Part shown: piece by piece, positions 10,300 through 58,326 of the stretch
Position numbering within the stretch: the stretch's first letter is position 1
How the letters are laid out: each line of letters starts with the position of its first letter
Assembly (NCBI GenBank): GCA_027022365.1
Contig: JALVYU010000007.1
Coordinates: 125,007 to 189,006, forward strand
DNA from: Desulfurococcales archaeon
Lineage (GTDB): Archaea; Thermoproteota; Thermoprotei_A; Sulfolobales; Desulfurococcaceae
Length of the DNA: 64,000 nucleotides
Reading direction: 5' to 3'
Translations under genes and position numbers: made by a program
Notes under the pieces: generated by a model
What the model was told of the DNA's origin: nothing
Seen by the model: the letters and a program-made list of their open reading frames with translations, nothing else
The model's database searches: none

Positions 10300-10564
10300 A
10301 ACCACTAGACCCTCAACGCCGCTCAAATACCTTAGGAGCGCTGTGAACCAGACCGTACTAATCAAGCTGAAGGACGGCTATGAATATATAGGCACACTAG
10401 AGCTCGTAGACCACACTATGAACGTTGTGCTAAGCGATTGTGAGGAGTACGATGATCAGGGCAACAAGGTCGCCCGTTATGGAAAAGTTCTGATTCGTGG
10501 TAGCCACATATTATTTGTAAGCATAAACTATGGACAGGTAGCACCCGAAATAGCTCTGGGCTAG
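10277..10564 (+). CDS. Sm-like (LSm) RNA-binding protein
   Basis: Sm1 (G.L...D.TMNVVL) and Sm2 (IRGS) motifs. Confidence 0.92.
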
Positions 10565-45537: not shown

Positions 45538-47073
45538 CAACGATACCAACTGTTCATACTCACCAGCCGCAATCTTATCACATAGTTTATCGATAACTAT
45601 TTTTGACCATGGAAGCTCTTCGCCCGGCTCATAACCATTGAATACGTAATTAATACTATAGTTTGTCATTTTCAGCGCCTTCCTCCATCCAGACAGGCCG
45701 CCACCAAACTTGGCGGCCTGTAGTAAGGTCTCAGAAATGTCTCTTCCCGCCAATGCAATTGCAGCTTGCATCACAGCCCATCTCACATCATAGTCTCTGA
45801 AATCAACATGTCTTCGCAACCTATTTTTCAGTGATTTTATTAAACGCTTGAGCCTAACGGGGTCGGGCATACCTATCCACTGAAACAGCGTCCTTGGCTT
45901 AGGGATGAGAGGATTTACACTAACAACTATCTTTCTACCCTTCCTCTTCGCCCTACTACTTATTTTTTCTATATATTTTATTTCATCAAGATCTATATTT
46001 TCGAGTCCTCTAACACCTACTATCATGTATATCTTTAGGTCGAATCCTTTATCAAGTATTAATTCTAGATCATCAAGCAATTCTTTTCCATAGTATTTCC
46101 CGAAAACATATTTCTTGGCGGGAAGAAATGATTCTGGAGCAATTGTGATGGTTTTCTGGCCAAGCCTACTTATTAATTCTAGAGAATCTTCATCAAGATG
46201 ATCGATCCTCATACTTGGAAGCACAGCACCAATATTGTTTTCCACCAAATACTCCAATAATTCCTTCTCGTAATGATTGCCTAGGAAACATAATGAGTAA
46301 ATAACTATTCTATTTACATTATTCATGCGTATACCATGCTCAACAAGATTTTTCATAACATGAAAACTCCGCACACGATACGGCTTGAATAATCTGCCCT
46401 CCATGCAGAACCTACACCAGTATTTGCAGCCCCTGCTTGTTTCGAGGAGGAAGCCACGGCCATAGACAGGCTCGATCTCTGTATTCTGGATTTGTTTAAC
46501 TGGATAGAATGACTTATCTAGATCACTGACAAAGGATTTTCTGGCGTTCTCCTTAATATCCGGAACATAGACGTCATTATATGAAGCTATCTTCTCTAGG
46601 TATTCCTTCTTATCCCTAATTTCAACCCAATCCTTGACGAGACGCGGGATAGTGTTCTCGATTTCTCCAATTATGAATGCGTCAATGAAATCAGAGTAAG
46701 GTATAGGATTGGATATCACTACCGGGCCGCCAGCAATTATAACTTGTTTTCTCTTTTTTCTATATGGTTCTATACCTGCAGATAGGAGAGCTCTAAGAAC
46801 ATCTATTATTGAGAGCTCGTAGTGGAGGCTCACGATGATCAGTTCGAAGCTCCTAAGAGGGGCTCCTGTCTCTATACTTCTAGGAGGGGGTTCTTCTCCT
46901 TGGAACTTCTTTATGTGGAAGCGTTCCAAGTATACATCATCTATATTGTTTACCATATAGTATATCATATGGGTTGGGAGACTAGATAACATAGCCTCAT
47001 ATGTGGACGGAAATAAATAGGCGATTCTGGCCATACCAGCCCTAAATTTTTTAAGTACAAGATTGAATTCCAT
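45508..47073 (-). CDS. radical SAM protein with B12-binding-like N-terminal domain
   Basis: AGGP...NP.P, ETSRGCKYWCRFC, APES, P.IPKPRT. Confidence 0.88.
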   Translation of the reverse strand: MEFNLVLKKFRAGMARIAYLFPSTYEAMLSSLPTHMIYYMVNNIDDVYLERFHIKKFQGEEPPPRSIETGAPLRSFELIIVSLHYELSIIDVLRALLSAGIEPYRKKRKQVIIAGGPVVISNPIPYSDFIDAFIIGEIENTIPRLVKDWVEIRDKKEYLEKIASYNDVYVPDIKENARKSFVSDLDKSFYPVKQIQNTEIEPVYGRGFLLETSRGCKYWCRFCMEGRLFKPYRVRSFHVMKNLVEHGIRMNNVNRIVIYSLCFLGNHYEKELLEYLVENNIGAVLPSMRIDHLDEDSLELISRLGQKTITIAPESFLPAKKYVFGKYYGKELLDDLELILDKGFDLKIYMIVGVRGLENIDLDEIKYIEKISSRAKRKGRKIVVSVNPLIPKPRTLFQWIGMPDPVRLKRLIKSLKNRLRRHVDFRDYDVRWAVMQAAIALAGRDISETLLQAAKFGGGLSGWRKALKMTNYSINYVFNGYEPGEELPWSKIVIDKLCDKIAAGEYEQLVSLLRSASGDHS

Positions 47074-57183: not shown

Positions 57184-58038
57184 GTGGAAATAGTACTCAT
57201 CGGTAATCCCACGATAGACAAGATATATGTTGATGGATTCTTCATAAGAGAAAGTATTGGTGGCGGCATATATTATTCTCTGGAAGCATTGAGGGAAATC
57301 TATGGAAGACGATATAAAATAGCAGTTATAACAGCTATTTCTCCGCATCAGTATTCCTGGTTATCAATACTTCATCGATCGGGGGTAGAAATCATAGCTT
57401 ATCCATCACTTCTGACCAATGTCTTTGTCTTGAAATACGAGGGCGGTAAGAGAAGAATCTATATCGAGGAAAAATCGCCTCCGCTAATCTTCTCTTTTGA
57501 TAAAATATATGATGTCGCAATCGTTAATCCAGTTATGAACGAAATACTACCCCACCAACTAAGAATAACAAAGATAAAAACACGGTTCACAGCGATAGAC
57601 ATACAGGGATTTATTCGTAGATGCAGAGACAAGTTTATCGAGTACTATAGGCCCCCCCATCTAAAGGATCTATTTAGATTCAGTAATGTGGTACATATGA
57701 ATGATGATGAGGCACAGTATCTCACGGGAACACTACGTTTCGACGAGCAAGTCAAAAAACTAGTCGAGCTATCTCCTAATACTATATTCATAGTATCATC
57801 GCCGGAACACGTTGCGATGGGCACACAGAGCCTCTATGAGTATATTGAAGTACCCGATACACGTTATCCGGATACAACAGGGGCAGGCGATTATCTGCTC
57901 GCTGTATTTGCGGTTGAGCTCTATAGATCAAATGATCCTATGATTTCGCTTGTAAGGGCAATTAAGAAAACACAGGAATGGCTAAATAGGAAAAATGCCT
58001 CATCGCGGCCTGCCACCCCCAACCACCACCGCCACTGA
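57184..58038 (+). CDS. PfkB family carbohydrate kinase
   Basis: GN.TID, GGG..Y, DIQGF, N..EA, DTTGAGD. Confidence 0.88.
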   Translation: MEIVLIGNPTIDKIYVDGFFIRESIGGGIYYSLEALREIYGRRYKIAVITAISPHQYSWLSILHRSGVEIIAYPSLLTNVFVLKYEGGKRRIYIEEKSPPLIFSFDKIYDVAIVNPVMNEILPHQLRITKIKTRFTAIDIQGFIRRCRDKFIEYYRPPHLKDLFRFSNVVHMNDDEAQYLTGTLRFDEQVKKLVELSPNTIFIVSSPEHVAMGTQSLYEYIEVPDTRYPDTTGAGDYLLAVFAVELYRSNDPMISLVRAIKKTQEWLNRKNASSRPATPNHHRH

Positions 58039-58270
58039 TCTCCCGGCCATATAAAACCCGGGGGAAGAGCGGCCACTATTCATTTTGAATAATATGATAT
58101 TGTTTAGTTCCCAACTACTGTGCAAAGGAATTACTGGGATTATATCTTATTAGAGTGTTAGGCCCTAGCTATTGGGGGCGTCGCCGGATACATTATATGA
58201 GCATTGTTTCGCAGGCGGTGGTGGTTTAATGTATTATCCTAATTACTGTGGGTGGCAGGCCGCTCGGCAT
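57995..58270 (-). ncRNA. unassigned ~276-nt structured RNA candidate closed by a K-turn
   Basis: perfect inverted repeats 58005-18/58250-63 (14 bp) and 58021-33/58214-26 (13 bp); ATGCC-GA / GAT-GA-GGCAT K-turn on minus strand; TTTATTAAA 21-29 nt upstream. Confidence 0.6.
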
Positions 58271-58326
58271 GTATTATTTTATTTAAACATTTTAATAAAT
58301 GTTTGGATTACTGTTCAAAGAATAGA

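Follow-up and report, generated by a model that had tools for sequence, protein, structure and literature searches.

In hyperthermophilic Crenarchaeota, we know of few structured ncRNAs that are of unknown class and occur throughout a family, once the guide RNAs, RNase P RNA and SRP RNA are set aside. Box C/D sRNAs are roughly 50–70 nt in length. L7Ae is reported to regulate mRNAs via kink-turns in Sulfolobus acidocaldarius (PMC5539422), and archaeal Sm-like proteins bind uridine-rich RNA (PMC12817955). The stretch of Desulfurococcaceae DNA analysed here, a window of 64,000 nt, carries a previously uncatalogued ncRNA gene that most members of the family have as a single copy in their genomes. 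We read its product as an RNP RNA which is confined to this family, is probably bound by L7Ae and displays motifs in single-stranded form, and give this reading as a whole a probability of roughly 60%.

The gene comprises about 280 nt of the minus strand, from about 58270 to 57991 of the window (Table 1). In 5'-to-3' direction a TATA box is followed by AUGCC-GA, helix 1 (14 bp), ACA with the 23-nt asymmetric loop, helix 2 (13 bp) and a 180-nt interior, after which the partner strands of the helices return, followed by GAUGA-GGCAU and a U run. Most of these parts had been picked out in an earlier note on this DNA and are borne out: GCGGCCTGCCACCC (58005–58018) and AACCACCACCGCC (58021–58033) are perfectly complementary to 58250–58263 and 58214–58226, respectively, the ends of the minus strand read AUGCC-GA and GAU-GA-GGCAU as proposed for a K-turn, TTTATTAA lies where a TATA-like box had been placed, and both GC hairpins are found in the minimum-energy fold, the one nearer the 3' end being 20 alignment columns shorter in the window RNA than in five congeners. 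An 8-mer pairing of 58227–58234 with 58188–58195, which had been suggested to form a pseudoknot or switch, is present in the window sequence, but is perfect there only; three congeners show one uncompensated mismatch and two others have the internal 8-mer replaced, so that the pairing is not conserved in the congener alignment and lends a pseudoknot or switch no comparative support.

Table 1. Features of the RNA gene and its neighbours, in window coordinates.
Feature	Position	Strand	Remarks
Thioredoxin-like protein gene, cysteine-free, 124 aa	58327..58701	-	directly upstream, same strand; in 60/63 family genomes
TATA box TTTATTAA	58292..58299	-	22–29 nt upstream of the RNA's first A
Terminal (non-canonical side) stem, 5' strand AUGCC	58266..58270	-	predicted transcript start; partner is 57995–57999
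Kink-turn GA, non-bulged strand	58264..58265	-	invariant in 50/50 homologues
Helix 1, 5' strand GCGGCCUGCCACCC	58250..58263	-	14 bp, canonical stem of kink-turn; inverted repeat and covariation
Asymmetric internal loop, 23 nt	58227..58249	-	starts ACAG; faces just 2 nt (58019–58020) on the 3' strand
Helix 2, 5' strand AACCACCACCGCC	58214..58226	-	inverted repeat; nearly invariant sequence in long forms
Variable AU-rich interior	58074..58213	-	GCCC...GGGC hairpin (about 58161–58185), CCAGUA 58137–58132, CACAGUA 58122–58116
GC-rich 3' hairpin GGGUUUUAU	58034..58073	-	U-run internal loop (U run 58056–58053); minimum-energy fold
Helix 2, 3' strand GGCGGUGGUGGUU	58021..58033	-	inverted repeat and alignment
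Helix 1, 3' strand GGGUGGCAGGCCGC	58005..58018	-	inverted repeat and covariation
Kink-turn bulged strand: 3-nt bulge GAU, then GA	58000..58004	-	AUGA invariant in 50/50
Terminal stem, 3' strand GGCAU	57995..57999	-	pairs with 58266–58270
U5 run, likely transcription stop	57991..57995	-	shares last U of GGCAU
PfkB-family kinase ORF, convergent	57184..58038	+	orthologue in 49/63 family genomes

Homologues occupy the same locus in 52 of 63 Desulfurococcaceae genomes, and 50 of them are full length (173–323 nt). The 52 are made up of 18 genomes in which a pattern for the 3' end has exactly one match each (a reversed control gave 1 match in the 63), shorter versions at the syntenic position in 25 of 29 further genomes, and 7 more together with 2 copies cut by contig ends that were found downstream of the small-protein gene. 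All five congeners have full-length homologues with 71–84% identity. A covariance model (R1) built solely from short and intermediate forms recovers the long RNA of the window with 55 bits (E 4.5e-12) as its sole match in the genome, which makes short and long forms homologous. Outside the family, no homologue was found in a covariance-model search of 132 genomes from 12 sister families, and a wider pattern scan returned, among the matches listed (80 records), many chance matches in high-G+C bacteria and 3 relevant ones, all in records with names beginning Desulfurococc, of which R1 matches 3/3, as against 0/17 other records. Eight family genomes (four in one genus, three in another and one in a third) are without the RNA at the locus, so the RNA can be dispensed with or replaced; a BLAST search of five of them with an RNA from the same genus found nothing (best E 0.066), and in the order-wide run R1 gave no match in one genome without the RNA at the locus (G075), an absence that is not proof since R1 missed G022, which has a long form. 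The 17 sequencing runs for this DNA are hydrothermal-vent metagenomes, of DNA or of unknown kind.

Eight inverted-repeat pairs of at least 13 nt and at most 400 nt apart occur in the whole 64-kb window, and two of these are the nested helices 1 and 2. A different inverted repeat in the window, at 45732/46115, lies inside a 521-aa ORF. The minus strand folds with a z-score of -4.6, and 0/200 shuffles fold as well; the plus strand is about equal (-4.3). Covarying homologues, which the earlier note had named as a check, were found, and the covariation of helix 1 extends across genera and is strong in both size classes. In the long forms (19 sequences) compensatory changes on both sides are seen in 9 of 14 pairs and 99.6% of cells are paired; the covariation score of 0.293, compared with 0.148 for shuffles, was reached by 0/500 of these, while slid controls stay at or below 0.09. 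Both-side changes affect 17 of the 18 pairs in the short forms (31 sequences), where again none of 500 shuffles matches and slid controls do not exceed 0.13, and RNAalifold predicts the outer helix alone for 6 short forms. Helix 1 consists of exactly 14 contiguous bp in 28/50 homologues and ranges overall from 13 to 18 bp; in helix 2 of the long forms, 9/12 pairs never vary. The 767 helix-1 pairs include 62 G-U as against 7 A-C mismatches, by which the minus strand is favoured as the transcribed one.

These findings bear on the view that the locus is a DNA-level inverted repeat without RNA function, be it the remnant of a mobile element or a bidirectional terminator. Such a reading would suit a long inverted repeat between convergent genes whose two strands fold about equally well, yet it is barely credible and largely refuted already, given that the element is single copy, that compensatory changes preserve pairing as the sequence drifts, and that G-U strand asymmetry, invariant unpaired kink-turn letters and a TATA box of its own belong to it. 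A MITE or other mobile inverted repeat, which multiple copies would have betrayed according to the earlier note, is likewise rejected, since both BLAST and the covariance model find a single copy in this genome and relatives have one match per genome.

In each of the 49 homologues with enough upstream sequence, a TATA-like hexamer starts 27–31 nt before the first base of the stem. At the other end, a run of at least four T starting no more than 12 nt after the kink-turn is found in only 22/50 homologues, and in the others the 3' end would have to arise in some other way. Because of the TATA box at fixed distance, the heavy covariation, the G-U strand bias and the single copy, the locus is very probably a real RNA gene, its transcript and ends being predicted. 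This agrees with the proposal of an undescribed ncRNA made in the earlier note, as does the lack of an Rfam match (see below).

The RNA stands after the thioredoxin-like gene at most loci, and it could be viewed as a structured 3' UTR, or a processed 3' fragment, of the thioredoxin-like mRNA, in which the kink-turn would let L7Ae control stability or translation. The shared strand, the short distance from stop codon to TATA box (~28 nt in the window, with no U5 run between) and the kink-turn-mediated mRNA regulation by L7Ae that is reported in S. acidocaldarius (PMC5539422) would fit. We consider this reading improbable, because the invariable distance between TATA-like box and terminal stem favours an own start site, one genome has the protein gene about 16 kb from the RNA, and eight genomes have the protein gene but lack the RNA behind it.

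On the other side, the pfkB-like ORF ends at 58038, so that its final 44 nt lie antisense to the RNA's 3' end, as had been claimed from the window alone. The RNA might accordingly be a cis-antisense regulator of the convergent PfkB-family kinase, with pairing or transcriptional collision tuning mRNA stability or 3'-end formation. Indeed, at all loci at which both genes were found together the two converge, with the kinase adjoining or overlapping the RNA, and in most genomes the open frame of the kinase continues into the RNA gene for about 10–60 codons beyond the aligned region. However, in seven genomes the RNA is still present downstream of the small-protein gene although the query used found no kinase, and in one genus the kinase frame, judged by eye, ends before the RNA. 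Furthermore, the overlap coincides with the strand of helix 1 and kink-turn, which is paired inside the RNA and thus poorly available, and antisense regulation leaves the conserved kink-turn, the 14-bp ruler and the interior motifs unexplained. A regulator of this kind is thus not a likely identity.

By sequence criteria (GA pairs, 3-nt bulge, both stems) the terminal motif is a standard kink-turn. The GA of the 5' strand and the AUGA of the 3' strand, GA included, are found in 50/50 homologues each, which provides the tandem G.A/A.G positions. The bulge is (G/A/U)AU, its first base being G in 45 of the 50, A in four and U in one, and its register is fixed since helix-1 pairs flank it on either side. 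The canonical Watson-Crick stem abutting the bulge (13–18 bp) is 98.6–99.6% paired next to the turn and shows the compensatory changes, while the non-canonical stem beyond the GA pairs has 2–5 bp, of which the central G-C and C-G pairs are retained in nearly all homologues (31/31 and 30/31 short forms, respectively). Next to the GA pairs stands C-G in 31 of 50 homologues and A/A in 15, and a second, internal kink-loop, seen in one genus, switches between the same two types. With kink-turn letters invariant throughout and two L7Ae-family proteins encoded in the genome, the RNA is likely to form an L7Ae-bound kink-turn RNP, a prediction made from letters and gene content.

No family of Rfam 15 matches the RNA. 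The search gave 0 matches at gathering score in the window and only noise at E up to 10, nine homologous loci likewise yielded only noise, and a literature search found no description of such an RNA. The absence of a known class had been left in the earlier note to an Rfam search, and RNase P and SRP RNA had been set aside there for want of signature motifs; both points hold, since the window is without a match to archaeal SRP RNA (RF01857) or RNase P RNA (RF00373), and both genes score above cut-off on another contig. There is no tRNA in the window. Box C/D sRNAs are rejected by box order, which is reversed in all 50 (GA-only strand 5', GAUGA strand 3'), and by guide, as merely 5 nt lie outside the 5' GA and there is no conserved rRNA complement. 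Antisense 9-mers compared with the 16S and 23S rRNA of this genome show no conserved complement above shuffles except for C-rich helix strands: one site common to 8 genera is matched by the C-rich helix-1 strand and not by loops, nor by the window RNA, and the remaining sites are common to at most 4 genera as against shuffle maxima of 2–4. Nor does rRNA mimicry hold, as the sense 8-mers reflect AU-rich or (GGU)n low-complexity sharing (at most 8 genera versus shuffle maxima of 4–7). In this genome a GGUGGUGG tract follows the 3' end of 16S at a distance of ~35 nt; a pairing of the RNA with the 3' trailer of 16S was rejected, no matching or covarying tract being found in the trailers of the 23 family genomes with the 16S 3' end assembled. 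In the case of box H/ACA sRNAs, the 3' end consists of GGCAU and a U run with no ACA nearby, the loop is 23 nt on one side and 2 nt on the other, and ACA is internal.

An atypical modification guide, or an RNA that binds the guide proteins, would be a looser relative of these classes, either C/D-like or using kink-turn, 14-bp stem and ACA to recruit the H/ACA proteins in a non-classical way. The kink-turn together with the internal kink-loop of one genus recalls the two box C/D motifs, and in all 23 long and intermediate forms ACA directly follows the 14-bp helix 1 on the strand leaving towards the 3' side, in what we take to be the strand topology that H/ACA RNAs have for the ACA behind their lower stem. 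By contrast, ACA is absent from that place in 27 short forms and a two-sided pocket is missing; on the C/D side, the reversed boxes leave no space for guides outside them. With neither an rRNA target beyond the C-rich strands nor a match to an Rfam C/D or H/ACA model, a guide-like role is very unlikely. In an unlikely variant of the RNP reading, the kink-turn, 14-bp stem and ACA of the long forms would recruit the H/ACA protein set purely as a handle for stability or assembly.

The interior is AU-rich and variable, and enriched in UACAG/ACAGUA, ACGAG and U-run motifs, in counts made over related sequences that overstate independence, with mononucleotide shuffles as a weak null: UACAG occurs in 9.2 of 14 genus-weighted genera versus 2.5 expected, ACAGT and TACAG are 6.9-fold and 4.7-fold enriched over flanking DNA, ACAG is counted 85 times versus 44.6 in shuffles, and U5 and U4+ runs are found in 28/50 and 40/50 homologues versus shuffle means of 6.6 and 21.5, the position and flanks of the U4+ runs varying. 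Small ORFs in the interior, compared by eye among close relatives, have no conserved frames, with 1-nt indels in a conserved motif block.

In the proposed explanation an independently transcribed gene would yield a stable ncRNA specific to Desulfurococcaceae, transcribed from the first base of the short terminal stem onwards, about 25 nt past the TATA box that belongs to the gene. The two ends of the RNA would pair and be capped by the kink-turn, from which the G+C-rich canonical helix of 13–18 bp would point inward, and L7Ae on the kink-turn together with this long helix may clamp and protect both ends at very high temperature, Desulfurococcaceae presumably living near boiling. The clamp would enclose 130–260 nt of AU-rich, poorly conserved sequence with repeated UACAG/ACAGUA, ACGAG and U4–6 runs. 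At the weakest step of this model, the interior would be largely single-stranded and serve one or several RNA-binding proteins as a platform or decoy; such a scaffold or decoy function is tentative. A uridine-binding Sm-like protein is the candidate partner of the U runs, but Sm-like genes number ~3 per genome with or without the RNA and thus give no co-occurrence signal, and the internal U5 runs could be archaeal terminators rather than protein sites. An unlikely, more specific version has a family-specific RNP core in which L7Ae on the kink-turn and an Sm-like protein on the U run hold the loop open, while UACAG and ACGAG titrate or organise another RNA-binding factor. A CsrB/CrcZ-like decoy or an snRNP-like scaffold would, if true, be the first described in Archaea to our knowledge.

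The comparative support for the RNA, with promoter, covariation and invariant kink-turn letters, is unusually clean, and its design is unusual in that a kink-turn facing inward and a ruler helix of 14 bp would clamp a large AU-rich loop. The RNA is a candidate new substrate for L7Ae biology and a candidate archaeal example of RNAs that sequester proteins or act as scaffolds, offers a test case for keeping single-stranded RNA stable near the boiling point, and is ready for RNA family databases, where it would improve the annotation of Desulfurococcaceae genomes.

Like box C/D sRNAs, the RNA is encoded by a small promoter-driven gene and has a GA/GA kink-turn made from its two ends as a terminal cap, to which one genus adds the internal kink-loop. 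Since the strand order is reversed, however, the canonical stem is directed inward and the non-canonical one lies at the terminus, which is the topology of an internal C'/D' motif and unlike that of terminal C/D; in addition, the RNA measures 173–323 nt instead of roughly 50–70 nt and has neither box-flanking guide segments nor an Rfam C/D match. The 5' stem-loop of U4 snRNA and box B/C of U3, binding sites of eukaryotic L7Ae homologues, also contain a standard kink-turn with a 3-nt bulge, and in 31/50 homologues here the GA pairs are followed by a Watson-Crick G-C. The presence of a kink-turn and a U-rich tract on one RNA is loosely reminiscent of snRNPs, but there is no homology beyond the motif, the U run lies inside the RNA at varying places, and this archaeal group is without a spliceosome. 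With the bacterial CsrB/RsmZ and CrcZ it shares a body of variable length bearing several copies of a short single-stranded motif, whose copy number and spacing drift among genera while the motif persists, but the motifs are others and the clamp of kink-turn and helix has no counterpart there, so that the analogy is one of mechanism and not of membership. Finally, the kink-turns of the l7ae mRNA leader, SRP RNA and RNase P RNA are expected to represent the same protein-recognition motif (PMC5539422), whereas the kink-turn described here closes an independent RNA that has a promoter of its own.

Two nested helices, for which the earlier note had given coordinates and pairings, proved exact on rechecking the sequence: an outer one (helix 1), which is the canonical stem of a terminal kink-turn, and an inner one (helix 2). 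On the minus strand the order is 5'-AUGCC-GA-(helix 1)-ACAG...(23-nt loop)-(helix 2)-...180 nt...-(helix 2)-GG-(helix 1)-GAU-GA-GGCAU-UUUU. Both the helices and the fold at this locus exceed chance. The 64-kb window holds just eight inverted-repeat pairs of at least 13 nt with a spacing of up to 400 nt, and helices 1 and 2 are two of the eight, while the minus-strand fold reaches -105 kcal/mol (z = -4.6), a stability equalled by none of 200 shuffles. The plus-strand fold has a similar value (z = -4.3), so the strand cannot be read from folding energy alone. A further pairing proposed earlier, between an 8-mer and the 23-nt loop as a pseudoknot or switch, did not hold up: it is perfect in the window only, and the alignment of the five congeners has one uncompensated mismatch in three and a replaced internal 8-mer in two, so this complementarity is treated as a probable chance match within AU-rich sequence.

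Positions of the RNA gene, its elements and other features (window coordinates, except where the genome G000 and its contigs are named; C7 is the contig of the window)
Feature	Position	Strand	Remark
RNA gene, ~280 nt	about 58270 to 57991	minus	
Helix 1, 14 bp	58005-58018 with 58250-58263	minus	perfect complementarity
Helix 2, 13 bp	58021-58033 with 58214-58226	minus	perfect complementarity
TATA box TTTATTAA	22-29 nt 5' of the first A of the RNA	minus	
Region with A-rich tract, then ATATA	58271-58299	minus	between TATA and start
Segment with reduced 3' hairpin	58034-58073	minus	
PfkB-like ORF	57184-58038	plus	44-nt overlap with RNA 3' end
Kinase C-terminal tail, ~14 codons	57995-58038	plus	antisense to kink-turn and helix 1
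Sm-like (LSM) gene	10328-10522 (G000:C7:135334-135528)	plus	~48 kb from the RNA
16S rRNA stretch, 971 nt	G000:C7:286-1256		~124 kb upstream of the window
Second kink-turn candidate	G000:C30:86798-87094	plus	outside the window

Homologues of this RNA range from 173 to 323 nt and fall into long, intermediate and short forms. Covariation, which the earlier note had proposed to look for, was found in the long forms and in the pooled short and intermediate forms. In the long forms (n = 19) pairing in helix 1 reaches 99.6%, and 9 of its 14 pairs have changed on both sides; the covariation score is 0.293, compared with 0.148 for shuffles, none of 500 reaching the observed value; sliding the partners by 1-3 columns lowered the score to 0.09 or less. 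By contrast with pairing alone, the sequence itself is conserved in helix 2, since 9 of its 12 pairs never vary in the long forms. The short and intermediate forms (n = 31) show both-sided changes at 17 of 18 pairs, again with 0/500 shuffles reaching the observed values and slid controls of 0.13 or less. Sequence comparison demonstrates RNA-level constraint on the terminal kink-turn and the ruler helix (helix 1), and in the long forms also on the sequence-invariant second helix. The 767 pairs of helix 1 over 50 RNAs include 62 G-U pairs and only seven A-C mismatches; the two counts would be swapped on the opposite strand, and the RNA is therefore read from the minus strand of the window.

The upstream region points firmly to a promoter belonging to the RNA itself. 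In all 49 homologues with sufficient upstream sequence, the terminal stem is preceded by a TATA-like hexamer that starts 27-31 nt 5' of its first base, and a conserved AAACAAA-like tract follows the hexamer. Between TATA and start, this A-rich tract (about -14 to -8) precedes an ATATA in the 49 homologues, and the two may form a promoter element typical of stable RNA genes in this family. Downstream, a run of at least four T begins within 12 nt of the kink-turn in 22 of the 50 RNAs, the window included; the other 28, mostly from two genera, have no such run within 30 nt. The earlier reading of the locus as a structured non-coding RNA gene is thus supported in all its testable parts (covariation, TATA-like box, strand signal and single copy).

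By BLAST, full-length relatives with 71-84% identity occur in all five congeners, and only the two ends are matched in other genera. A pattern made of the 3' strand of helix 2 and GAUGA matches exactly once in each of 18 of the 63 family genomes (the reversed pattern matched once in total), and in all 17 of these in which the kinase was found the match adjoins the kinase 3' end in convergent orientation. The kinase orthologue was detected in 49/63 family genomes. Inspection of the DNA beyond it in 29 pattern-negative genomes revealed the same architecture in 25, shorter (173-204 nt) apart from one 264-nt long form with a spacing outside the pattern; 21 were located by script and four were anchored by hand because helix 1 is bulged, and in the remaining four, all of one genus, no RNA lies beyond the kinase. 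The upstream neighbour of the RNA, a gene for a 124-aa protein present in 60/63 genomes, served as anchor in 13 further genomes and added seven full RNAs and two cut by contig ends, with none beyond it in three genomes of one genus and one of another. In total the RNA occurs in 52 of 63 genomes, 50 times in full length; eight lack it at the locus, and the remaining three, whose anchor gene was not detected or sits at a contig end, fall outside both counts. In five of the RNA-lacking genomes, a BLAST search with the RNA of a member of the same genus gave no convincing match away from the locus (best E 0.066).

The size classes are tied together by R1, a covariance model whose only input was the 31 RNAs of the short and intermediate classes, because it recovers the long form of the window (55 bits, E 4.5e-12) as the sole match in its genome. 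In an even, order-wide sample of 151 genomes run with strict filters, R1 matched 16 of 18 family genomes besides that of the window and none of 132 genomes from 12 other families; a long form already known went undetected, so that "not found" does not equal "absent". Among public records listed by a pattern scan, R1 matched all three titled Desulfurococcaceae or Desulfurococcales archaeon, from which the family name is taken, and 0/17 unrelated records. The distribution across these genomes strongly indicates restriction of the RNA to one family.

Known RNA classes do not account for the locus. Rfam 15 gave no match at gathering score across the whole window; at E up to 10 the RNA region gave two noise matches only, to models of a microRNA (E 0.32) and of a histone stem-loop (E 9.3). 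Among nine homologous loci, each from another genome, the only match at E up to 1 was a weak one to a C/D-box model (E 0.91), more than 1 kb off the RNA. The Rfam search proposed earlier thus returned no strong match to a known class in the window or the nine loci. The genes for SRP RNA (125 bits) and for RNase P RNA (165 bits) lie on another contig, which rejects identity with either; no tRNA was detected in the window. A MITE, which should be present in multiple copies, is ruled out, since BLAST and the covariance model find the element once in the 1.74-Mb genome. The RNA lacks the defining features of box C/D, H/ACA, SRP and RNase P RNAs and of MITEs, and rRNA guide function, rRNA mimicry and pairing to the 16S trailer were tested and found unsupported. 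Full-text searching of the literature found no description of such an RNA, in line with the earlier "undescribed", and supplementary tables may list it as a transcript without a name.

Neither flanking gene suggests a function. Upstream, on the same strand, lies the gene of a cysteine-free 124-aa protein with a weak thioredoxin-fold match (Pfam Thioredoxin_3, 20.4 bits, below cut-off), and beyond it a 460-aa ORF that looks seryl-tRNA synthetase-like; the PfkB-family kinase gene (29.1 bits) lies downstream in convergent orientation. Seven RNAs have no kinase detected nearby, one lies ~16 kb from the 124-aa protein gene, and in eight genomes this gene is present with no RNA after it. The kinase tail is encoded antisense to the kink-turn and helix 1, and in most genomes the open frame extends 10-60 codons past the aligned kinase domain; part of the tail conservation probably reflects RNA constraint rather than protein function. 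Elsewhere on the contig, which begins inside the 16S gene, the 16S rRNA stretch matches just 328 model positions, implying a ~640-nt insertion, possibly an rRNA intron.

Helix 1 measures 14 bp, with ACA after it, in each of the 23 long and intermediate forms; the helix is contiguous in 22 and has a single C-A mismatch in the other. The enclosed interior is AU-rich and poorly alignable across genera. RNAalifold returned the outer helix only for six short forms of one genus, and two G+C-rich hairpins and little else for the genus of the window. Relative to all five congeners, the RNA of the window is short of 20 alignment columns in its G+C-rich 3' hairpin, so the apical part of this hairpin is dispensable. 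Short motifs recur, in counts that span related sequences and thus overstate independence: UACAG in 9.2 of 14 genus-weighted genera (2.5 expected), ACAGT and TACAG enriched 6.9-fold and 4.7-fold over flanking DNA, ACAG 85 times in 45/50 RNAs (44.6 in shuffles), ACGAG in several genera, and U5 runs in 28/50 RNAs (6.6 in shuffles).

L7Ae, of whose family the genome encodes two proteins, would bind the terminal kink-turn and, together with the G+C-rich helix, clamp both ends, which could keep an otherwise AU-rich RNA stable if the family grows, as assumed, at very high temperatures; the loop might present single-stranded motifs to other factors. As a passage of PMC12817955 describes, Sm-like proteins bind uridine-rich RNA, which makes them candidates for the U run; Sm-like gene count does not track RNA presence. 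One of the three Sm-like genes of the genome lies in the window, with no linkage implied. An L7Ae-capped scaffold or decoy is our best guess at the function, held with moderate to low confidence.

The kink-turn is the only recognisable module of the RNA. Its GA (5' strand) and AUGA (3' strand) are each invariant in 50/50 RNAs, the bulge opens with G in 45, A in four and U in one, and the position adjoining the GA pairs holds C-G in 31 RNAs and A/A in 15. The covarying helix 1 on one side and the short terminal stem on the other fix the register. Four loci of one genus (L007, L037, L038 and L195) carry an internal kink-loop (4-bp stem, GA, 7-nt loop, GAUGA, stem) that recapitulates the terminal motif and, at the position adjoining the GA pairs, alternates between the two variants seen there. 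In a crude scan for 10-bp helices closed by GA ... (G/A/U)AUGA, one further candidate with a paired 3-bp terminal stem emerged, on contig C30, with no homology to the RNA by R1. The RNA is classed as a new family within a known kind, the kink-turn (L7Ae-type) RNP RNAs. In the kink-turn, the long inward helix serves as canonical stem and the RNA terminus as non-canonical stem, a strand order that, set against the motifs of box C/D RNAs, is that of their internal C'/D' motif and unlike that of their terminal C/D motif.
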